64,000 bases of DNA. It comes from an uncultured Alphaproteobacteria bacterium. GTDB lineage: Bacteria; Pseudomonadota; Alphaproteobacteria; Rs-D84. Below the pieces are notes generated by a model that had not been told where the DNA came from, searched no databases, and saw nothing but the letters and a program-made list of their open reading frames with translations. Position numbers and translations under genes: made by a program. Below, one piece after another: positions 1,118 to 37,604 of this stretch (its first letter is position 1; each line of letters begins with the position of its first letter). The stretch lies in contig CALXMN010000001.1 of assembly GCA_944389495.1 (NCBI GenBank), forward strand, positions 7,551 to 71,550, in the 5' to 3' direction.

Positions 1118-1309
1118 AATAAGTTATTATACACGATAAAACATATCGTAACAAATAATAAAAAATTCCGCTTTGTAAATACCCGGTTTTCTTATTTACA
1201 GACCGCACCAAAAATGTTATAATTAAAGAAAACAGATGGGGGTTAATGTATCCAAAACACCATTGAACATCGGGTTTTCCGGTTGTTTCCGGAATACAGG
1301 AGAGTATTT

Positions 1310-3544
1310 ATGAAAAGCCGTAATTTCGCAGAACACGTAAAAAATGCGATGGGGACAGTATTCTTGTTGGCCGGCGCGTTCTTTGTTTGTTCAACATTAT
1401 TATCGATGCGTGCCGTATTTGCCGACCCTATTGCGCCGGCAAATACGGTTCCCACGTCATCTGGGGCGGTGGCGTCACCGCGTGCGTCCGGTACGGTACG
1501 TTCTGCGGCGCGTCCATCTGTTGCCGCATCGCGTGGTACATCATCAAATATTGTGTCACGTGGCACGTCATTGACGTCAAATAATAATTCTGCAACGACT
1601 GCGCGTACGGTGACATCGCGTACCGCTGCATCACGTGCGGCCGTAACGCCGGGGGGCGCGCGTACAAATACCGTGTCCCGTGCAACGAATACATCGGGTG
1701 GTGGTCGGCCGTCTGTAACCGCGTCGCGTAATACGGGTGTGGTAACATCACGCACAAATGCATTGCGCGGAAATACATCACGTAATGTTGTGTCGCGCAC
1801 AACGTCAACAAATGTTGCCAATCCGTCACGTGCGGTTGTGTCACGTACAACAACACCATCGCGTGTTTCCCTCCAGGGCAGTGCCATCCGTGGCAGCAAG
1901 GCCGCCGTTAATTCCAGCACATATACATATCTTCAGAACAGATTGTATACCGGTAACTATTCAAACATAATTGATTCCACCACGGGTCTTATCTCGGCCG
2001 AGGCATATAATAACTGTCTGGAATCATATTATGCCTGTATGGACGAGATTTGTACGGCGCGTAACGCGGCCCAACGTCGTTGTGCCTGTGCCGGTCGTGT
2101 CAAGGCCTTTGCCGAGGCCGAAGACGCACTTGAGCGTGCAAACGAAGAATTAATCAAGGTTTCTGGCGAATTGGCATTATTAATCGCCACCAAGGGCAAA
2201 GATATAAGCGAGGCATTTCAATTAACCGATGCAGAAAAGGTTATGAACTGCGTTTCCTGGAAAGAGGTTACCGATCAATATGGCCAATCTTCGGACGAGG
2301 CCGTTGAATGGTGTAATAACCACGGCATCTATGGAACAAATGGTGGTGCATTATCCACCTGTTCCCAGCCATCGTATTGCTCGGAAAGTGGAAATAATTT
2401 CGGTTTTGATATTACGAATATTGATGGTTCCAGCAGTGATATTTTGGCGTCCCTGCAATCTTGGGCCGATGCCAAAGAACAGACGTTAACAATTCTGACC
2501 GATGATAATGACAGTTTGACATCTGCATTTGATGAATTGACCAGTGTCGTCGGCAGTTTGGCCGGCATAGATGGCGCATTGGCATCGTCGGATGAATTAA
2601 AGGATTCTTTGGCGGAAACGTGGGGTTATGAATTGTTTGAATATGCGCATAATAATGTGTGCAACCGCGTATTAGACTCTTGCTTTAACGGTATATACGA
2701 GGCCTGTGGTACACCGCCCGCCGGTGGCACCAAGTGCGGAAATGGTCGTTCCCAGTGTCCATATAACTATAACAGTTATATATCCGTATCAAACAGCGGT
2801 TCGTATGAATTGGACTTTATTGAACCGAACACGGGCTATACGGCATCTAATTCGGCGACGTGTTTTGGCTATACAACCGCATCGGGTGACCCGTATGCTG
2901 ATTTGCGCGGCCCGGTTGCAGATGCCCGCCGCAGTATTATGCAGAAATACGCATTGGATGCAAATGCAGATTGTGATGCGTATGGCGAACAGTTAAGTGC
3001 CACCGCCCAAAATATTGGATATCAAAAGGTTGCCGCACAACAGGCATTACAACAGAAACGTCTTGAATTCTATCAAGAAGAACAAGAAACTGTTTTGGCC
3101 GATGCAACCGCCGCCGGTACAAACTTTAACGAGTGCCTGAGCGAGATATTAGATTGCTATGAAACCCAGGCGGATTCCGAACCGAACTGGACAACGGCGC
3201 GTATCAAAACATACTGTGCCCAGGTTGCAAATGTTCCGCATTGTTATGAAACGATGATTTGTAACCCGTCCACGTCCCAGTTCCGTGCCATCATCGACGA
3301 ACAAGACAGTGAAACCTGTAACAACAGCCAGGATTACGAAGAAAATACCTGTCGTAATATCGTGACATTGAACGAAATCTTGAATGGTGTTAACGGCGCG
3401 ACGGTAACGGATACAGAAACCGCATTGTGCATTGGCGAAGATGCATCGCGTTGCAGTTCTGCAAATATGCGTGAACAATGTCTGTTGAACAATTGGGTAA
3501 CCGAAATTCGTGAATGGGAAAAACCCAAAGACGATGGTGAATAA
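1310..3544 (+). CDS. Large exported protein with T/S/R/A low-complexity N-region and Cys-rich domain
   Basis: AGGAGA RBS before ATG 1310; hydrophobic leader; repeated VxSR motifs; CLESYYACMDEIC...RRCAC; paralog of 5454-7829. Confidence 0.8.
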   Translation: MKSRNFAEHVKNAMGTVFLLAGAFFVCSTLLSMRAVFADPIAPANTVPTSSGAVASPRASGTVRSAARPSVAASRGTSSNIVSRGTSLTSNNNSATTARTVTSRTAASRAAVTPGGARTNTVSRATNTSGGGRPSVTASRNTGVVTSRTNALRGNTSRNVVSRTTSTNVANPSRAVVSRTTTPSRVSLQGSAIRGSKAAVNSSTYTYLQNRLYTGNYSNIIDSTTGLISAEAYNNCLESYYACMDEICTARNAAQRRCACAGRVKAFAEAEDALERANEELIKVSGELALLIATKGKDISEAFQLTDAEKVMNCVSWKEVTDQYGQSSDEAVEWCNNHGIYGTNGGALSTCSQPSYCSESGNNFGFDITNIDGSSSDILASLQSWADAKEQTLTILTDDNDSLTSAFDELTSVVGSLAGIDGALASSDELKDSLAETWGYELFEYAHNNVCNRVLDSCFNGIYEACGTPPAGGTKCGNGRSQCPYNYNSYISVSNSGSYELDFIEPNTGYTASNSATCFGYTTASGDPYADLRGPVADARRSIMQKYALDANADCDAYGEQLSATAQNIGYQKVAAQQALQQKRLEFYQEEQETVLADATAAGTNFNECLSEILDCYETQADSEPNWTTARIKTYCAQVANVPHCYETMICNPSTSQFRAIIDEQDSETCNNSQDYEENTCRNIVTLNEILNGVNGATVTDTETALCIGEDASRCSSANMREQCLLNNWVTEIREWEKPKDDGE

Positions 3545-3619: not shown

Positions 3620-3898
3620 TTATTCTAATGGACAGATTTCGGTAAATTCATATGTGCCGGTTGTATCGGTGTATTCTGTGTTCGCCGGTGCGTACATTAT
3701 GCAAAAACCGTCGGGTGCGGTGGTCAGACAACTGGTCACCGTACCACCAGATAGGTAACCCGTCGGACAGGACCAAGGCGCGATAATTGTATCTTTTTCT
3801 TCGGCCTGTATATATCCATTTGGGCACGTGGTCAGTGGTTCGGCCGCAATTGCGGTGCGGAATATCGGTAATATACATAAAAACAAAGATTTTTTCAT
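3620..3898 (-). CDS. Small secreted Cys-rich protein (cassette 1, gene B)
   Basis: AGGAGG RBS; signal-like N-terminus; two CPxGY repeats; CIMYAPANTEY...CPLE shared with 31864-32142. Confidence 0.8.
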   Translation of the reverse strand: MKKSLFLCILPIFRTAIAAEPLTTCPNGYIQAEEKDTIIAPWSCPTGYLSGGTVTSCLTTAPDGFCIMYAPANTEYTDTTGTYEFTEICPLE

Positions 3899-3917
3899 AT
3901 GCATCCTCCTTGTCTGT

Positions 3918-4340
3918 TTAAATAGATTTTATCAGCGAATATCTGAATGGTTGATTTGCTGTTATTTGTTTTGCGCATTCTTCTGCGCATCGGCTGGTAC
4001 AGGAAAGGCTGTTGCTAAATGAAAATGCTTTTACCCAGTTTGACATAACGGGGTGAATTATTTTGCAGTAACAATGCCGATTGTTGTTTTGCGTTGTTGC
4101 ATCGATTTGCAGATGGGTTAGTGCGCCCGAGTTGTCTTCAGAAGAGCATCCTGCAATACCGTCGATAACCGTTTCTTTGTTGTTTGTGTCACAATTGGTG
4201 CGCCAATCATATGCACCTTTAAATACACCGGCACTGCATTTTGTAAGTCCGGAATCCAGTGCCACGCACTTTACAACGGCCGCGGCCGGCGGAATCGCGA
4301 CCACACACAACGCACCTGCGATTAGTAAATATTTTTTCAT
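3918..4340 (-). CDS. Small secreted Cys-rich protein (cassette 1, gene A)
   Basis: GGAGATAAGAAT-ATG; signal peptide; VVKCVAL and CYCK..P..S.W..C...CA..CA scaffold shared with 31411-31848. Confidence 0.85.
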   Translation of the reverse strand: MKKYLLIAGALCVVAIPPAAAVVKCVALDSGLTKCSAGVFKGAYDWRTNCDTNNKETVIDGIAGCSSEDNSGALTHLQIDATTQNNNRHCYCKIIHPVMSNWVKAFSFSNSLSCTSRCAEECAKQITANQPFRYSLIKSI

Positions 4341-4371
4341 ATTCTTATCTCCATTTTCTTTTGTTTTTTAT

Positions 4372-4547
4372 AAAGAAAAACCACCGAATTTTTTAGGTGG
4401 TTGGAGTTTAAGAACAATTGATCGAATTGCGTGGCTTATTCAATATATTCACCACACTCCAACCGCGCGGGTTGGATTTATTTTACGTCCGTATTACCAG
4501 ACGCGATCAATGGGTTCTTAAGCCCAATGTGGAAACACCCCACATCA
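4372..4547 (-). ncRNA. Structured leader RNA, C4-antisense-like element copy 1, ending in an intrinsic terminator
   Basis: Homologous to 31212-31388 and 19140-19296 with compensatory changes; AACCACC/GGTGGTT hairpin plus U-run; upstream TTGATT-16-TATTAT promoter-like sequence. Confidence 0.7.
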
Positions 4548-5453: not shown

Positions 5454-7829
5454 ATGAGAAGATTGCCCCTGTGCTTTTTCTTGATGGCGGTTTTTATACC
5501 GTTGGTTTTTGCCGACGGTACTGCTTCGGCCATATCACGTGTTATTCCATCTACGGGCGATACAACAAATGGCGCCGCGACCACGTCCGGCGGGCGCGGG
5601 GCCACAAATACGGTTTCGCGCACATCCGTATCACGTGCGACAACTGCGACAACGACGGGTGAACAATCGATTGATGTTTCCGGCCAAGATTCAGAAAATA
5701 CATCTGGGCGTGGGACGTCGGCACGCACGGTCGTCGGGCGCAGTGCAACATCCGGACAATCCAGGTCTGTGACGGACAATTCATCGGTTGTGCGTGTTGG
5801 TTCGCGTGTGTTGAATTTGGGGGACGCGGCCACGCCAACATCAACCGCGCGTGGTTCAACGACAACCGTGAATTCGGGTACATCGCGTGCCGGTGCGACC
5901 CAGACGCATACAAATACTGCGCGTGAAAATTTGGATGCAACGGTTAACACGGTTGGTCGCAACGCTCGTGTGGAAAGTGCAAGTATAAATAATAATCCTG
6001 CGGTTCGTCGGGCTGGGTTGACATTGCGGCCATCCACGGCCGAGGTTGGCGGTCGTGCCACCATTGCGGGCACAGATGTCCAGACTGGATCAAACATCGA
6101 CGAACAGGTTCGTGGTGTTCGCACGCGTGCGGCGTCTGTGACACCAACGGCGGAATCAATTGCCGATGCGACCGAACGGTTAAACCTGACGTCGGATTTA
6201 AATTCTTCGTGCCAGCAACAGTATAATGATTGTATGGACCAGTTTTGTAATGTTATCGATGCAAACCAGGGACGTTGTTCGTGTTCTTCAAACCTGTCGA
6301 ATTACACCGATGTAGAAGAGGCTGTCACCGATGCCAACAACCAATTGAACGAGGTTGCACAACGTATTCGCTATGTCGGATTGTCCGCGGATGAAATTCG
6401 CGCCATTATGAATGAAACCGAGGCAGAAGAGGCTTTATCCGGCGCCAAGGATACATCTGAAACCCGTAATATGTTGGAAGAGATAGAAAATCTTATTCGT
6501 GACCCATCAAGTACGGCGTCATCATATAATTATGGTTCCGGTTTCGGGTTGGATATGGATTTAGATTTTACGACAAATATTGCGGATTTGTTCAGTTTGG
6601 ACTTTTTGAACACCGGCACAACCAGTTTTTCGAACCTGCGTGGAACGGATTTGTATAACGCGGCCAAGAATCGTTGTCGTGTCGTCCTTGACCAGTGCGA
6701 GGCCGCCGGTGCCAACATAGACCAGATTACCGCAAACTATGATTTGGCCGTGGACAAGGATTGTATTGCCTATGAACAGGGGCTGAACAAAATGAATGAA
6801 ACGTTGGTTTCTAATGTGCGCAGTGCGAATTTAATGCTGCAAAAGGCGCGTTTGGCCGTGTTACAGAATAAAAATCAATATGATGCCAAGGGATGTATTG
6901 CCGCGCTGGATCAGTGTATGACGGATGAAATGGTGTGCGGTGCGGATTATACAAAATGCTTGGATCCGACCAAAACGTATATCGATGAAAACGGCGAAGT
7001 CGTATTGGGCCAGGATGTTACCAAAATTCGTGACTTTATGACAAAGTATGACAATTCAAAAATAGACAAAGGATTTTTGCAAAATTCATACAGTATGCCA
7101 ATTGGTGTGAACAATTGCACCGCCGCAGTGGACGATTCGGACGAAGATGATGTTGGTAATAATGGCGCCTGTATTGTAAAATATTTGTTACAGAAAATTG
7201 GTACCAAGCAAGAGGTCACAGACGAAGGTTTGTGTCGTGCTGTTTTGGATAAATGCCAGGCATACACATATGACGACCGTGGAAATTATTTACCATATAA
7301 CGACGTTGTCATAAATTATGTCCAGCGTGCAATGGTTAATATTCAGGCCGAACAACGCCAGATTATATCGGACTATGCATCAAATTGTATGTTGGATATT
7401 GCGAATTGCTATAACCAACAGGTAACCCAGGTTAATGCCTGGTCCACCAGTGCCAGCGTAAACAGCATTTATAACGTTATGCGTGGTGCGTGCCGCAATG
7501 TTGCATTAACGTGCGCATATGCCGTGTTCGATCAAGACAGCACCAGTTGCCCTGCAACCAACGACGATAAGTGCATAGAAAGCATTTCGGAAATGTTTTA
7601 TCAATCATTGTTGTGTCCGGATAATGCGATATATGACGATACGTGTTCAACAACCGATGGCGAATGTGTCAATGAAAAGTGCAGATGTTTGTCTGAGTAT
7701 GAAAAGTGGGGTACCCAATGTTTGGCCAAATGTCCGCCCAATTCAAATCGTAATTCTTATGGTTCGTGCACCTGTCTGTCAGAATATGTAATGAAAAACG
7801 GTGTTTGTGAAAAGATAAACGACAACTAG
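5454..7829 (+). CDS. Large exported protein with low-complexity N-region and Cys-rich domains
   Basis: Signal peptide; T/S/R-rich region; CQQQYNDCMDQFC...GRCSCS; EGF/furin-like Cys-rich tail; paralog of 1310-3544. Confidence 0.8.
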   Translation: MRRLPLCFFLMAVFIPLVFADGTASAISRVIPSTGDTTNGAATTSGGRGATNTVSRTSVSRATTATTTGEQSIDVSGQDSENTSGRGTSARTVVGRSATSGQSRSVTDNSSVVRVGSRVLNLGDAATPTSTARGSTTTVNSGTSRAGATQTHTNTARENLDATVNTVGRNARVESASINNNPAVRRAGLTLRPSTAEVGGRATIAGTDVQTGSNIDEQVRGVRTRAASVTPTAESIADATERLNLTSDLNSSCQQQYNDCMDQFCNVIDANQGRCSCSSNLSNYTDVEEAVTDANNQLNEVAQRIRYVGLSADEIRAIMNETEAEEALSGAKDTSETRNMLEEIENLIRDPSSTASSYNYGSGFGLDMDLDFTTNIADLFSLDFLNTGTTSFSNLRGTDLYNAAKNRCRVVLDQCEAAGANIDQITANYDLAVDKDCIAYEQGLNKMNETLVSNVRSANLMLQKARLAVLQNKNQYDAKGCIAALDQCMTDEMVCGADYTKCLDPTKTYIDENGEVVLGQDVTKIRDFMTKYDNSKIDKGFLQNSYSMPIGVNNCTAAVDDSDEDDVGNNGACIVKYLLQKIGTKQEVTDEGLCRAVLDKCQAYTYDDRGNYLPYNDVVINYVQRAMVNIQAEQRQIISDYASNCMLDIANCYNQQVTQVNAWSTSASVNSIYNVMRGACRNVALTCAYAVFDQDSTSCPATNDDKCIESISEMFYQSLLCPDNAIYDDTCSTTDGECVNEKCRCLSEYEKWGTQCLAKCPPNSNRNSYGSCTCLSEYVMKNGVCEKINDN

Positions 7830-17389: not shown

Positions 17390-17905
17390 ATGAGGCACTT
17401 TCCGATTCTTTACTGGCCACGCAAGACAACCGCCGACCCGGATTACCAGTTGGCGCGCAAGGTCATAAATAATACCGCCGGTGTGATGCCGGATGTTATA
17501 ACCGGCGATTTGGATTTGATGGGGCTTTTGGCCAAGAATCCAAATGCAACAATATATTATCCTGTATTTTGTGAATCGACCGGTTGGTGGGGGGAATTGT
17601 TGGGCGGCAATGCCGTTGTAACGGACAAATTAATTATATCCCCGGAATGTCAGTTAATGGTCATAGAATCAGAACATACGGCCGGTACATCGACGCGTGG
17701 CAAAAATCAACTGTTGGCGGCGGAAATCTATCCAGCCAGCGGTTTTTTCAAGAAAATGAATTCTGGTATTGCGACGGTTGCAGATATGTTGGCAACGGAT
17801 GCCGGCACGATTTTGGCACTGTTTGCGGGGAAAAGTCCCACCCAGTTTATAAATGTTTTGGAATCAACGGGAAATTCATATTTGGGATGTATTGGTCGGT
17901 ATTAA
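17390..17905 (+). CDS. Hypothetical protein
   Basis: 171-aa ORF filling the gap; TATAAT 8 nt upstream of ATG; no family recognised. Confidence 0.7.
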   Translation: MRHFPILYWPRKTTADPDYQLARKVINNTAGVMPDVITGDLDLMGLLAKNPNATIYYPVFCESTGWWGELLGGNAVVTDKLIISPECQLMVIESEHTAGTSTRGKNQLLAAEIYPASGFFKKMNSGIATVADMLATDAGTILALFAGKSPTQFINVLESTGNSYLGCIGRY

Positions 17906-17919
17906 TGTTTTAATATTGC

Positions 17920-17947
17920 TTGATTTCTGGAAAAATACTTGTATAAT
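17920..17947 (+). promoter_or_regulatory. Sigma70-type promoter of rpmE
   Basis: TTGATT-16nt-TATAAT with TG upstream. Confidence 0.55.
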
Positions 17948-17980
17948 TTCGGGGCTTATGAAATAAAAAGGGTAAATACG

Positions 17981-18193
17981 ATGAAAAAAGGAATTCATCC
18001 GGAATACTATGAAATCAACGTCACGATGACGGACGGTAACACTGTAAAAATGTATTCTTCGGTTAAAAAAGATTTAATTTTGTCTACGGATAACCTGAAT
18101 CATTCCGCGTGGACCGGCCAACGCAGCAATGCCGGCGAAAAGGGACAACGCGCAACCAAATTTAAAAGCAAATTTGCAGGATTCAATTTTTAA
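17981..18193 (+). CDS. rpmE: 50S ribosomal protein L31 (Zn-free type)
   Basis: MKKGIHPEY...H.AWTG...KF..KF. Confidence 0.95.
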   Translation: MKKGIHPEYYEINVTMTDGNTVKMYSSVKKDLILSTDNLNHSAWTGQRSNAGEKGQRATKFKSKFAGFNF

Positions 18194-18217
18194 TATAATT
18201 ATATACGGGGCGGGGCA

Positions 18218-18922
18218 ATGGAACTGCTGATCAAAGGTTCGACCGAATTAAACAAAATGTTTATGGCGTTGCAACGAACGGCATCCGGCCTGCGTCACGA
18301 TTTTGGCGAGGTGGAAAATCTGCAACAATCCCTGCACGGTGCGCGTGACTTTGTAAAAAAGGCCGCGAGTCGTATCGAAGAAAGCATTTTGTCCGATTTG
18401 CTGTTGGTGCGTCCGGCGGCGGGTTTGTTGACCCCGAATGTGACACGCGACGGCGCGGGGCGTGAAGAATTTGTATTATCGCTTTCGGGTGCGGCGAATT
18501 TTGTTCGCGCGAATCCGCATTTTGCAATATCATTGGCATTGCGTTCGAATGACGAAACGAAAATCGCATTGGTATATTCACCAATTGATGAACGTTTGTA
18601 TTATGCCGAGTTGGGACGTGGCGCATACGTTTTTTCGGCATATCATTCTGCGCGCGTTCGTGTATCTAATTTATCAGAAACGGCGGATTTAACGGTTGCG
18701 TATAATACCACGTATGCGCGGCGCACAATTGGTGATGTGCGTCGTACGGGATGTCCGGCATTGGATTTGGCGTGGGTTGCATCTGGTAAATTTGATGGAT
18801 ATGTTTCTGATCCGTTGGATTTTGCAGAAATTGCGGCGGGCGACCTGCTTGTACGCGAGGCCGGCGGAAAAATCACAATGGATTCTGAATTAATTGCGAC
18901 CAACGGCCACATAGATTTATAG
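18218..18922 (+). CDS. suhB: Inositol monophosphatase family protein (SuhB-like), catalytic motifs degenerate
   Basis: RHDFGEVENLQ, NF...PHFAISLAL, RRTGCPALDLAWVASGKFDG, IAAG.LLVREAGG; DPxDGT motif absent. Confidence 0.75.
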   Translation: MELLIKGSTELNKMFMALQRTASGLRHDFGEVENLQQSLHGARDFVKKAASRIEESILSDLLLVRPAAGLLTPNVTRDGAGREEFVLSLSGAANFVRANPHFAISLALRSNDETKIALVYSPIDERLYYAELGRGAYVFSAYHSARVRVSNLSETADLTVAYNTTYARRTIGDVRRTGCPALDLAWVASGKFDGYVSDPLDFAEIAAGDLLVREAGGKITMDSELIATNGHIDL

Positions 18923-18970: not shown

Positions 18971-19065
18971 ATTTGATGGTCCGGTGCGAATGATTTTTAG
19001 CCAGAATCGAGAAACACATCACTTAATTATCTTTTGCCGGGTCAAAAAATAAAAACCCGGGCCAG

Positions 19066-19296
19066 AAAAAGGGCGGGAATGCCCGAATTTGTGGAGATAA
19101 GATGGACATTCCCACGGCAGGTTACATATATTTGTAACAGGTGGTTGGAGGTTCAAAACTATATCAAGCAAATAGCGGAACTTATTCGATATATTCGTTC
19201 CCCTCCAACCCGATAAGCAATTGGTTGGCAGGATTTTAACGCAACCCGGTGCGCGCCTGATAGAGGTTTTGATGCCTCGCATTGATTCCCAATGCC
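19066..19296 (-). ncRNA. Stand-alone C4-antisense-like structured RNA, copy 3, with 3' hairpin exposing an anti-RBS loop
   Basis: Same stems as copies 1 and 2 with compensatory changes, loop GAATATATCGAATAA, CCTCCAACCACC; extended -10 TGTTATAAT upstream; 12-bp terminal stem with G-U pairs only on the minus strand, followed by CCTTTTT. Confidence 0.7.
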
Positions 19297-19380
19297 ATAT
19301 TATTATAACACGTTTAATTTTGCATTTCCAGAAAATAAAATACAAAACTTGCAAATGCGGGATAAATATCTTAAAATTTA

Positions 19381-31095: not shown

Positions 31096-31211
31096 GTTAT
31101 GGGTCACAGGGCGGTGGTATGTGTGGTGTATTTTTTTTTATTCTATGATGGGTTTGGTAACCGAATTTTATTATTCCTTGCGTTGGTATGGCTAATACGA
31201 TAATATAAATA

Positions 31212-31388
31212 CGTCGGTGGGTGTTCCGCCGATGGGCTTAAGAACCCTTTACACGCGTCTGATTCAGACGTTAAACAAAACGTCCAACCATAACGGTTGG
31301 AGTGTGGTGAATATATTGAATAAGCCACGCAATTCGTGTAATTGTTCTTAAACTCCAACCACCTGAAAATTTTTGGTGGTTTTTTCTT
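31212..31388 (+). ncRNA. Structured leader RNA, C4-antisense-like element copy 2, ending in an intrinsic terminator
   Basis: 43-nt and 25-nt blocks identical to copy 1 flanking a 3-nt variable loop; TTGCGT-17-TAATAT upstream; AACCACC/GGTGGTT plus U-run. Confidence 0.7.
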
Positions 31389-31410
31389 GCAGAAAAAAGG
31401 AGATAAGAAT

Positions 31411-31848
31411 ATGAAAAAATATTTATTAATTGCGGGTGCGTTGTGTATGGTCGCGATTTTGCCGGCGGCGGCCGTTGTAAAGTGCGTGGCATTAAAGCCC
31501 GGCGAAACCACTTGCAGTGGCCCCAGTTTAAGTCCGGGTACGAATGAATGGACAACAACGTGTACAACAAATGGTACAAATGTGCCAGTCAGTGGTATAA
31601 TCGGGTGTTCGTCCGTCCGCGGCAGTTATGTTGGGGCCACTGTTGATGAATTACCAACAAATGTAAGAGCAGATGAAACGGTATACTGTTGGTGCAAAAT
31701 GACAAGTCCCGCTGTATCAAAATGGACGTATCGTACATCTTGGAGCGATGCAGAAACTTGTTTGAACTCTTGTGCCCCTAATTGTGCAAATGCATTTTGG
31801 ACGACGGATGGATTCAGTGATGGAATGTTTTCGTCTTTGTATGATTAA
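31411..31848 (+). CDS. Small secreted Cys-rich protein (cassette 2, gene A)
   Basis: GGAGATAAGAAT-ATG; MKKYLLIAGALC..VVKCVAL; CWCKMTSPAVSKW; paralog of 3918-4340. Confidence 0.85.
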   Translation: MKKYLLIAGALCMVAILPAAAVVKCVALKPGETTCSGPSLSPGTNEWTTTCTTNGTNVPVSGIIGCSSVRGSYVGATVDELPTNVRADETVYCWCKMTSPAVSKWTYRTSWSDAETCLNSCAPNCANAFWTTDGFSDGMFSSLYD

Positions 31849-31863
31849 ACAGGGGGGGCAGAT

Positions 31864-32142
31864 ATGAAGCATTTATTTGTTTTTATATTGGCGATCGCGC
31901 CGTGTGCATCATTTGCCGCCGCGCCGTCAACATCGTGTCCATCCGGTTATGTTGCCATAGAAGAAGAATATATGGCCATAGCGAATACTTCGTGCCCATC
32001 GGGTTACACATCCGCCGGCGCCGCGGCCAGTTGTTTAATTACCTCGCCCACGGGGTCGTGCATTATGTACGCGCCGGCAAATACAGAATATGACGATGTC
32101 GCGGGTGTGTATCTGTTTACCGCCGCGTGTCCGTTGGAATGA
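31864..32142 (+). CDS. Small secreted Cys-rich protein (cassette 2, gene B)
   Basis: Signal peptide; CPSGY x2; CIMYAPANTEY...CPLE; paralog of 3620-3898. Confidence 0.85.
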   Translation: MKHLFVFILAIAPCASFAAAPSTSCPSGYVAIEEEYMAIANTSCPSGYTSAGAAASCLITSPTGSCIMYAPANTEYDDVAGVYLFTAACPLE

Positions 32143-36189: not shown

Positions 36190-36264
36190 TGGCAGTCCCA
36201 ACGGGAATCGAACCCGTGTTACCGGAATGAGAATCCGATGTCCTAACCGCTAGACGATGGGACC
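36190..36264 (-). tRNA. tRNA-Glu (CUC)
   Basis: Reverse complement GGTCCCATCGTCTAGCGGTTAGGACATCGGATT-CTC-ATTCCGGTAACACGGGTTCGATTCCCGTTGGGACTGCCA; cloverleaf with encoded CCA. Confidence 0.95.
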
Positions 36265-37530: not shown

Positions 37531-37604
37531 TGGTTGGGGCGCACGGATTCGAACCATGATAAAGAGAACCAAAATCTCTTGTCCTACCATTAGACGACAC
37601 CCCA
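37531..37604 (-). tRNA. tRNA-Gln (UUG)
   Basis: Reverse complement TGGGGTGTCGTCTAATGGTAGGACAAGAGATT-TTG-GTTCTCTTTATCATGGTTCGAATCCGTGCGCCCCAACCA. Confidence 0.95.

Follow-up and report, generated by a model that had tools for sequence, protein, structure and literature searches.

A gene-less copy of an abundant structured leader carries an invariant hairpin loop in an uncultured alphaproteobacterium and may act as a trans-encoded antisense RNA

What is the function of a structured RNA leader that has no gene behind it? This question is raised by a locus at 19066-19296, minus strand, in a stretch of 64,000 nucleotides (the window) from an uncultured Alphaproteobacteria bacterium (contig CALXMN010000001.1 of assembly GCA_944389495.1, positions 7,551 to 71,550). 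At this locus there is a full copy of a structured leader, and the place of a gene behind it is taken by a hairpin (12-bp stem, 19-nt loop) and a U-run; this element is called the orphan below. No open reading frame (ORF) with a Shine-Dalgarno sequence was found within 170 nt of it, and there is no downstream gene. An interpretation made earlier from the letters of the window alone (the sequence-only reading) had taken the orphan for a master repressor that acts on the ribosome sites of the leader-linked gene cassettes. The orphan is a gene-less derivative, conserved as such, of a new and very abundant class of leaders, and the observation is real and non-random. Comparison of related genomes suggests, with a probability that we put at about 0.55, that its RNA is a trans-encoded antisense regulator, and it points to the start of an autotransporter-like gene as the better conserved partner. 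The genome of the window is designated G000 (905 kb, 96.8% complete), other G-numbers are sampled genomes and C-numbers are contigs.

The features of the locus, in the direction of the minus strand, are as follows.

19302-19330, minus strand: promoter-like site, TGGAAA, 17 nt, TATAAT, with TG before the -10 box; 10/12 in the consensus scan.
19280-19295, minus strand: hairpin A, GCATTG / CAATGC, present in the minimum free energy (MFE) fold; two-sided changes in 7/7 pairs and 71.5% of cells paired in the MAFFT alignment.
19263-19278, minus strand: hairpin B, GAGG / CCTC, whose loop TCAAAAC is the 5' strand of pseudoknot 1.
19159-19153, minus strand: 3' strand of pseudoknot 1, GTTTTGA, partner of the hairpin B loop.
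19262-19255, minus strand: 5' strand of pseudoknot 2, TATCAGGC, partner of the hairpin E loop GCTTGATA; 9 bp in the orphan.
19239-19254, minus strand: hairpin C, CGCA / TGCG, including a 17-mer specific to orphan-type leaders.
19223-19228, minus strand: anti-P1 segment CCAACC, alternative partner for the P1 5' strand.
19210-19202 with 19151-19143, minus strand: P1, GGTTGGAGG/CCTCCAACC, 9 bp, enclosing hairpins D and E.
19201-19177, minus strand: hairpin D, GGAAC/GTTCC, with the conserved loop GAATATATCGAATAA.
19175-19159, minus strand: hairpin E.
19143-19210, minus strand: leader core, made up of P1, D, E and the pseudoknot-1 3' strand; 87 bits, the best match of the genome.
19122-19137, minus strand: small spacer hairpin TTACAAATATATGTAA, not conserved, occupying the place of the CCACC/GGTGG terminator of other copies.
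19073-19115, minus strand: terminal hairpin, 12-bp stem 19115-19104 / 19084-19073 and 19-nt loop 19103-19085.
19102-19091, minus strand: invariant loop 12-mer TCTTATCTCCAC, inside the terminal hairpin loop.
19066-19070, minus strand: U-run, the likely 3' end in G000.
19036-19063, minus strand: post-hairpin element, a short GC stem with a U-rich loop, …CCGGG TTTTTATTTTTTGA CCCGG….

All the elements listed in the sequence-only reading were located on this strand at 19066-19296, and the pairings it described (stems B, D and P1, the E-linked pairing and the terminal 12 bp) are all found there. Its description of the orphan as a third copy is correct within the window, where the covariance model finds three copies, but not for the genome, which has 21. 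From the position of the promoter-like site, the RNA is expected to start near 19296; a -10 box is likewise positioned ahead of other leader copies. The MFE fold of the orphan yields hairpins A, B, P1 and the 12-bp hairpin (z = -3.4). The plus strand folds about equally well, so folding energy leaves the strand unsettled. The minus strand, as had been claimed, is settled by two other lines of evidence. First, two G-U pairs in the terminal 12-bp stem are possible on the minus strand only and would be A-C mismatches on the plus strand. Second, a covariance model of the P1-D-E core (model R2, 54 copies, structure supplied by hand) scores 87 bits on the minus strand and 17.9 bits on the plus strand. 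The 12-bp stem is absent from the list of the terminator scanner, whose loop limit is 8, and was found by direct inspection of the sequence. With a predicted promoter and 3' end of its own and no ORF, the orphan resembles a trans-encoded base-pairing small RNA (sRNA). The DNA contigs of two public runs confirm its sequence. Strain variants occur at 19277 (T>C, turning an A-U pair of hairpin B into G-U), at 19137 (A>G, inside the non-conserved spacer hairpin), at 19301 (adjoining the -10 box) and at 19065 (two additional A/T in one DNA run, which lengthen the U-run); none is listed in the 12-bp hairpin or its loop in these contigs.

The loop is the most conserved part of the element. In a congener sample of 201 genomes, G000 included, the loop 12-mer occurs 14 times in 12 genomes, and a backwards control gave 6 random matches. 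Ten of the 14 occurrences, each in a different species, are located in a hairpin loop that has a leader or promoter upstream. Eight of these hairpins are found at the same locus, between the same two genes (G000, G052, G127, G160, G097, G077, G216 and G098), and those of G081 and G108 are located elsewhere in the genome. The exact leader 17-mer, a query that does not contain the loop, matched 7 of the 201 genomes, and all matches were orphan copies with the loop; with one or two mismatches, matches were about equal in number to the control. A stem-pattern search for orphans with different loops found none. It recovered six intergenic hairpins, 6/6 with the same loop, and its seven extra matches were unrelated palindromes. 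Among the seven syntenic orphans that have a leader, mean pairwise identity is 0.86 in the leader, 0.50 in the spacer, 0.75-0.78 in the arms and 1.00 in the 12-mer. The stem of G097 shows a compensatory change from A-U to G-C. The CCACC/GGTGG hairpin is incomplete in these seven orphans, where either the U-run or the 3' arm is gone. In G081 and G108 the same loop is carried on an unrelated, longer stem, after a leader with its own terminator intact. In G098 the leader is absent, and a promoter, a short 5' hairpin and the loop hairpin with a U-run are present at the same locus.

A T run follows the hairpin only in G000, G160 and G098, and therefore the displayed loop, not termination, is the conserved feature. 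The post-hairpin element at 19036-19063 is similar in G000, G052, G127, G160, G097 and G216, and most of these six species have no U-run between the terminal hairpin and the element, which may be the true 3' end or a protein site. The sequence-only reading thus holds insofar as it saw a gene-less minus-strand RNA displaying a selected single-stranded sequence: the 12-mer is unchanged in hairpin loops of 10 of the 201 genomes, as expected of the seed of a trans-encoded sRNA, and the flanking spacers are about 50% identical. A trans-acting antisense RNA is favored because the loop core is identical while the spacers have diverged, because eight of the hairpins are at one locus and because one of them is leaderless.

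To which RNA would such a loop bind? A 13-mer search with two mismatches in G052 led to a gene of about 520 aa, whose orthologue in G000 encodes a 521-aa autotransporter-like protein and is located at C2:77348-78913, on another contig than the orphan. Its first codons are GTG GAT GTA AGA TGG AC in G000 and GTG GAG ATA AGA TGG AC in G216. The latter is the exact complement of the loop, and the invariant 12-mer is therefore antisense to the start codon and codons 2-4; when the top of the 5' arm is added to UCUUAUCUCCAC, the antisense match covers GUG GAG AUA AGA UGG, the start codon and codons 2-5. The gene start is complementary to the loop in most loop-bearing species, and it differs where the orphan is absent:

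G127, loop-bearing: gene 5' end GTGGAGATAAGGTGG.
G052, loop-bearing: gene 5' end ATGGGGATAAGATGGGG.
G098, loop-bearing: gene 5' end ATGGAGATGAGATGGGC.
G097, loop-bearing: gene 5' end TGTTGTGGAGAT, a short gap, then GAGGCATC, the latter fitting the altered 5' arm of G097.
G108, loop-bearing: gene 5' end TTTGTGGAGAT.
G081, loop-bearing: gene 5' end GTGGGGATAA.
G160, loop-bearing: weak.
G042, orphan absent, as an example: gene 5' end GTGGTTTTAAGAC.
G197, orphan absent, as an example: gene 5' end ATGGGAAAGGGATGG.

Species-specific bases also agree between the RNA and the gene (ATGGAC in G000, ATGGGG in G052, GAGGCATC in G097 and AAGAC in G160). In nine species the complementary site always starts between -4 and +1 from the start codon. 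In an ungapped scan of 1.81 million positions of G000, the gene start is the best non-self site for the 5' arm and loop (score 36). When the orphan of each species was paired with its own gene 5' end, it beat all 1,000 random windows in six of nine species; in the remaining three, p was 0.012, 0.024 and, for G160, 0.126. The 16-nt loop scores a median of 26 on the gene 5' end of the nine loop-bearing species and 13.5 on that of 14 loop-free species, a difference (Mann-Whitney p = 0.0006) whose significance is overstated, the species being related and not phylogenetically independent. A genome-wide ranking of targets, proposed with the sequence-only reading, was made by net cofold energy over 1,969 start windows. 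For the hairpin alone, the autotransporter-like start is first (-9.9 vs -7.1 kcal/mol), and four cassette sites rank 23, 52, 64 and 81. The ranking was rerun on the hairpin alone after the U-tail had drawn in generic AAAGG ribosome sites, which dominated the first list. Cofolding cannot represent kissing through the loop only, and cassette sites are therefore under-scored in it.

The autotransporter-like gene lacks a Shine-Dalgarno sequence. Upstream of it lies an intrinsic terminator, whose end is placed about 55 nt, or else at most about 45 nt, from the start codon. Most of the space between terminator and start is filled by a genus-conserved motif, CTTTAAGA ... TCTTATGTGCTA, so the 5' untranslated region (UTR) can hardly exceed about 10 nt. 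The geometry suggests that the messenger RNA (mRNA) would be nearly leaderless. In a wider search, CTTTAAGA, 7 nt and TC(T/C)TATGTGCTA were found 10-12 nt before autotransporter-like starts at 18 of 30 loci across the genus (C2:77311-77347 in G000). This motif is off the sigma-70 consensus and may be a special promoter or operator. The encoded protein has a signal-peptide-like N-terminus and an aromatic C-terminal residue. Its nearest ESM Atlas clusters score 0.98, and PF03797 (Autotransporter) is present in 55% and 27% of their members. The protein is autotransporter-like, and no more than that is claimed for it. Two paralogues were seen in eight of 61 genomes searched (G003, G013, G022, G045, G048, G072, G075 and G076). 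The protein is only 24-44% identical between species; such fast evolution is expected of a surface protein.

Several observations weigh against an antisense RNA directed at this gene. The margin of the ungapped scan is thin (36 vs 35 and 34), and with the U-tail included the gene start is 9th of 1,969, cassette 2 being 21st. The matrix of own versus other pairings is not diagonal, only three of nine orphans (G052, G127 and G098) being best on their own gene. The orphan of G160 pairs poorly with its own gene, which has the same 5' end as that of the orphan-free G042, and in G077 the gene was not found. In G000 the match with the gene start includes a mismatch and a wobble within the loop part (GUGGA-U-GUAAGAU), whereas the cassette sites offer 10-11 nt that are perfect and entirely contained in the loop. 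Within G000 alone, the cassette sites and the gene start would not be ranked with confidence, and loop-only pairing is better for the cassettes. Judged by the neighbouring inositol-monophosphatase-like protein, G042 (90%) and G008 (89%) are nearer to G000 than any loop-bearing species, and yet the orphan is absent from them; about 70-80 nt separate their inositol-monophosphatase-like and PBP1A-like genes, with no leader there. The orthologous orphan is present in G052 (87%). The sigma-70 scanner called no plus-strand promoter before the gene, and Pfam gives no family for the target protein at the curated cut-off. A U-run follows the hairpin in only three of the ten species. Finally, among public runs the stretch is contained in DNA contigs only, and in none on record as RNA; the single run labelled RNA-Seq gives small pieces at 17555-18275 only and is probably DNA.

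If the favored antisense reading is right, the orphan would be transcribed from the minus strand into an RNA of about 235 nt that consists of two modules, the leader (19296-19143) and an effector hairpin that replaces the gene. Pairing would start from the loop, at the very 5' end of the autotransporter-like mRNA, and spread into the 5' arm of the hairpin, to 14-17 nt in total. Covering of the start codon would then block translation. The leader would supply promoter-proximal structure; in G081 and G108 it may still gate the hairpin through its own terminator. Loss of this terminator would make expression constitutive in G000, and the leader would have been discarded in G098.

The first alternative is that of the sequence-only reading, in which the main job of the loop is to repress the leader-linked secreted-protein cassettes through GGAGAUAAGA. 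The cassettes of the window and their ribosome sites are the following.

4343-4353, minus strand: ribosome site of cassette 1, UGGAGAUAAGA, then AAU AUG, preceding the gene at 3918-4340; 11 nt complementary to the loop.
4396-4467, minus strand: leader core of cassette 1, 83.3 bits; the full leader extends from about 4560 to 4370, including the CCACC/GGTGG terminator.
31399-31408, plus strand: ribosome site of cassette 2, GGAGAUAAGA, preceding the gene at 31411-31848; 10 nt complementary to the loop.
31292-31363, plus strand: leader core of cassette 2, 85.3 bits; the full leader extends from about 31200 to 31390, including the terminator.

Each cassette (3620-4340, minus strand, and 31411-32142, plus strand) has a gene for a secreted cysteine-rich protein of about 140 aa, then a gene for a protein of about 93 aa. 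Pfam finds no family at the curated cut-off for these four proteins. Cassette 1 is flanked by cysteine-rich proteins of 753 aa (1283-3544, plus strand) and 791 aa (5454-7829, plus strand), which have low-complexity N-terminal parts and no Pfam family above cut-off.

The complementarity itself was described correctly: the loop sequence TCTTATCTCCA (19102-19092) is the exact complement of 4343-4353, and ten of its bases complement 31399-31408. A count over both strands of the 905 kb found GGAGATAAGA seven times, namely at six ribosome sites, all behind leaders, and as the antisense in the loop; in G000 the 10-mer is found nowhere else. Eleven nt also match at C7:34975, and the other ribosome sites except that of cassette 1 match over 10 nt. 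The pairing is perfect and fully exposed in the loop, and the loop-only duplex with a cassette site has about -16 kcal/mol. The match in G000 is more than chance. The leaderless orphan of G098 likewise faces four such sites behind leaders.

This does not extend to the family of cassettes or to the genus. In G000 the site accompanies only six of the 21 leader copies, and two of the six genes look broken or truncated (C4:16565 and C3:16068). Nor do loop and ribosome site regularly occur together: GGAGATAAGA accompanies the loop in only two of the ten loop-bearing genomes. The exact ribosome site GGAGATAAGAATATG is found in seven of 201 genomes (five times in G000, four in G098, three in G197, two in G079 and once each in G042, G214 and G138), of which only G000 and G098 have the loop; the antisense 10-mer is absent from the other five. 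In G052, G160, G097 and G081 the 10-mer is confined to the orphan itself, in G127, G077 and G108 its additional occurrences are within coding sequence, and in G216 one of the two occurrences is the autotransporter-like gene start. Leader-linked regions from five loop-bearing species, 21 in all, use other Shine-Dalgarno contexts. A loose 11-mer search (two mismatches, five genomes) gave hundreds of matches near the control level and was uninformative. We consider the cassettes unlikely to be the main target. To judge by these sequences, the cassette sites of G000 and G098 (4-6 secreted-protein genes, 10-11 nt) are probably lineage-specific extra targets, and repression of the cassette family amounts at most to a side-effect of local extent, limited to two of the ten species.

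A somewhat less likely explanation is that the orphan is a decayed cassette, in which the gene was lost and the hairpin is a mere terminator or an inverted remnant of the 5' end of a different gene, with no trans action. Decayed copies are indeed common in G000. Those at C2:18506 and C9:15083 are nearly identical and have lost the start codon with the ribosome site intact; at C4:16604 the leader lacks the P1 5' strand, so that P1 is damaged, and the gene is frameshifted; and the leader at C4:91463 has a 20-codon stub downstream. Gene-less leaders in tandem are present in G081, and the hairpin of G000 has a U-run. Decay would not account, however, for a loop that is 100% identical next to a spacer that is 50% identical, for compensatory changes in the stem or for the same loop on two other stem scaffolds. 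One species (G098) retains the hairpin without the leader, and the U-run is missing after the hairpin in most species. The orphan leader has the top score of all 21 copies in G000, which is unlike decay.

The orphan could also be a decoy that pairs with no mRNA: its RNA would titrate a factor or ligand acting on the roughly 20 leaders, or else a binding protein of the pyrimidine-rich loop. The leader module is intact and best-scoring, stand-alone leaders with terminators occur in tandem in G081, and a precedent is offered by Rli55/EutX, a riboswitch-controlled RNA that sequesters a regulator (PMC5449094). Against this, G098 dropped the leader and kept the hairpin, and the leader is thus dispensable for the conserved function; a protein site would not explain a loop complementarity that is position-specific to one gene start and includes species-specific bases. 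We regard a decoy as improbable, slightly more so than decay. A function of the plus strand, on which a small peptide such as a type I toxin would be translated from GGAGATAAG-ATG as its ribosome site and start (GGAGATAAGATG, then an 11-codon frame, in G000), was rejected as highly implausible, since the small ORF opposite the RNA is not conserved, the ATG being ATA in G127 and ACG in G160 and the frames varying in length and content.

The leader from which the antisense RNA would be derived belongs to a class with 21 copies in G000 (covariance model, E up to 0.01), many of which had already been shown by a regex scan and BLAST. In a sample of 121 genomes of the order, the model had a match in 102. 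The share was 80 of 81 for the genus, 86 of 91 for the family, and 12/19, 1/4, 1/2, 1/3 and 0/1 for other families. Several genomes of the order have at least 40 copies. BLAST had found the leader in 18 of 24 genomes of the same genus and in none of 16 genomes of other genera; this blank reflects a limit of sensitivity, because the covariance model later matched there. A search of the whole 64-kb window at the Rfam 15 gathering thresholds returned two transfer RNAs only (36193-36264 and 37534-37604, minus strand). Permissive Rfam searches of the three window copies gave a single sub-threshold match, to sRNA-Xcc1 on the orphan, and nothing for cassettes 1 and 2 at E up to 1. The class appears to be absent from Rfam 15. 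No description of it was found in the literature, where the supplementary motif lists of noncoding-RNA discovery papers could contain it. About 11 of the 21 copies in G000 precede paralogous secreted cysteine-rich proteins of about 140 aa, and the remaining leader-linked genes encode larger secreted proteins and three small proteins of helix-turn-helix (HTH) type. In G081, two or three full leaders were observed in tandem at C4:74564-77666 and C3:46767-49870, every one of them having a promoter and a terminator of its own. Neighbouring leaders are separated by about 180-240 nt that contain no gene, and stand-alone leader RNAs thus occur elsewhere in the genus.

Ordinary leader copies sit between a -10 box and a ribosome site, and most have a promoter before them and a ribosome site and gene after them. 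In an alignment of 76 copies, 80.7% of cells are paired, compared with 66.8% after shuffling (0/500 shuffles reach 80.7%), and 41 of 47 pairs show two-sided changes. Pairing reaches 96% in the B stem, 87.6% in pseudoknot 1, 98.5% in P1, 93-95% in D and 92% in E. Pseudoknot 1 covaries heavily: most of its positions show several types of base pair. Hairpins A and C and pseudoknot 2 seem weaker in the alignment, where MAFFT misplaces variable lengths. When each pseudoknot was tested sequence by sequence, the own partner gave a median of 7 bp and a swapped partner 4 bp; pseudoknot 2 has at least 6 bp in 89% of own and 18% of swapped pairings. The upstream CCAACC pairs with the P1 5' strand in 93.8% of cells; in the rare copies where P1 has the sequence GGTCAGGAGG, the segment covaries with it. 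The CCACC/GGTGG terminator stem, which precedes a U-run, is 85-90% paired, and its 5' arm overlaps the P1 3' strand by 4 nt. The leader module combines a covarying 5' UTR structure with mutually exclusive antiterminator and terminator, as in a riboswitch-like attenuator.

The simplest reading of this structure is that the leader would be a riboswitch-like ON switch for the downstream gene. The small 5' hairpin of CCAACC with the P1 5' strand, together with the terminator, would form by default. The antiterminator would be P1, held in place by the two pseudoknots, because the P1 3' strand overlaps the terminator with its U-run; through these pseudoknots the domain of three 5' hairpins would dock onto hairpin E. 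In the orphan, the leader's own terminator is missing. A trans RNA complementary to the D loop was sought in G000, and only the antisense strands of the copies themselves and one AT-rich site (C3:137251) were found.

How does the orphan compare with known systems? The closest precedents would be SreA/SreB, AspocR and Rli55 (PMC5449094). According to that paper, SreA and SreB of Listeria monocytogenes are S-adenosylmethionine (SAM) riboswitch transcripts that act in trans on the prfA mRNA, and AspocR and Rli55/EutX are noncoding RNAs controlled by B12 riboswitches, with the effector segment after the sensor. Like SreA/SreB, the orphan would be a riboswitch-type 5' element that works as a small RNA and pairs with the translation-initiation region of an unlinked mRNA (PMC5449094). 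It differs in its sensor class, which is undescribed, and in its proposed target, a start codon without a Shine-Dalgarno sequence. Moreover, SreA, as described there, is still the working leader of its own operon, with the seed inside the riboswitch transcript, whereas the orphan has no gene and carries the seed in an added downstream hairpin. With AspocR and Rli55, as that paper describes them, the orphan shares a sensor domain that is followed by an effector RNA instead of a gene, and G081 and G108 have exactly the order leader, terminator, hairpin. AspocR is cis-antisense and Rli55 sequesters a protein; the effector of the orphan is proposed to be trans-antisense. A terminator between sensor and effector, as in AspocR and Rli55, is present only in G081 and G108 and is absent from G000 and the six other syntenic orphans that have a leader.

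The seed in a hairpin loop and the complementarity that continues into the stem are also features of CopA/CopT, RNAI/RNAII and Sok/hok, which are loop-initiated, cis-encoded antisense RNAs with full complementarity. By analogy, this arrangement suggests a kissing contact followed by strand invasion. Unlike CopA-type RNAs, the orphan lies on another contig than its proposed target, and the pairing is imperfect and 14-17 nt long. The c-di-GMP (cyclic di-GMP) riboswitch classes are multi-copy elements in the 5' UTRs of genes for surface and secreted proteins, with terminator-type expression platforms. The leader is similar to them in its tens of copies per genome before secreted and surface proteins and in its terminator platforms. 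It differs in having no Rfam match and in its fold of P1, two hairpins and two pseudoknots. As a signal for the leader, c-di-GMP was rejected, since no GGDEF domain was found in the 96.8%-complete genome of G000.

The match of the orphan to sRNA-Xcc1 (RF02221) scores 35 bits, below the gathering threshold of 53 (E = 0.0002 in a 551-nt search), which leaves it outside the family. The two share a closing stem of about 9 bp around two hairpins, then ACC. sRNA-Xcc1 is described as a short RNA with its own end, upstream of and codirectional with symE in mobile (integron) cassettes (bioRxiv 10.1101/2025.06.18.660453), and the RNA that was detected measures about 88-100 nt (PMC2996969). Unlike the sRNA-Xcc1 model, the leader class has a 5' domain, pseudoknots and an anti-P1 segment, and its downstream genes are not symE. 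The resemblance is architectural and sub-threshold.

Taken together with the leader class, the orphan suggests a wider reading, which is clearly more tentative than that of the antisense RNA itself and which we would hold at less than even odds: a riboswitch-like class not described before, with two pseudoknots and an antiterminator platform, distributed over a whole order of gut bacteria with reduced genomes (1 to 40 or more copies in about 0.9 Mb), may control a regulon of HTH regulators and small, cysteine-rich secreted proteins, and one of its copies may drive a trans-antisense RNA that silences a leaderless autotransporter mRNA by pairing with its start codon. If this is true, one signal would switch the secreted-protein cassettes on and a surface protein off, and matching ribosome sites gained by cassettes in some lineages would close a feedback loop. 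The orphan would be an uncommon example from nature of a leader of sensor type that has been put to a new use, the expression of an antisense RNA acting in trans. Intermediates in its relatives, with the leader terminator intact (G081 and G108), with the terminator lost and with the leader deleted, show how such RNAs may arise. Its proposed target site, which consists of the opening codons of an mRNA that lacks a Shine-Dalgarno sequence, would provide a simple test of antisense control of leaderless translation. For the organism, the leader class as a whole has the broader meaning. With 21 copies in the 905 kb of G000, and 40 or more in some relatives, it is among the most repeated structured RNAs per genome size, and it precedes genes of unassigned function, whose products predominate among the secreted proteins of an uncultured lineage of the gut. 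The signal of the leader, once found, would open the physiology of this lineage.

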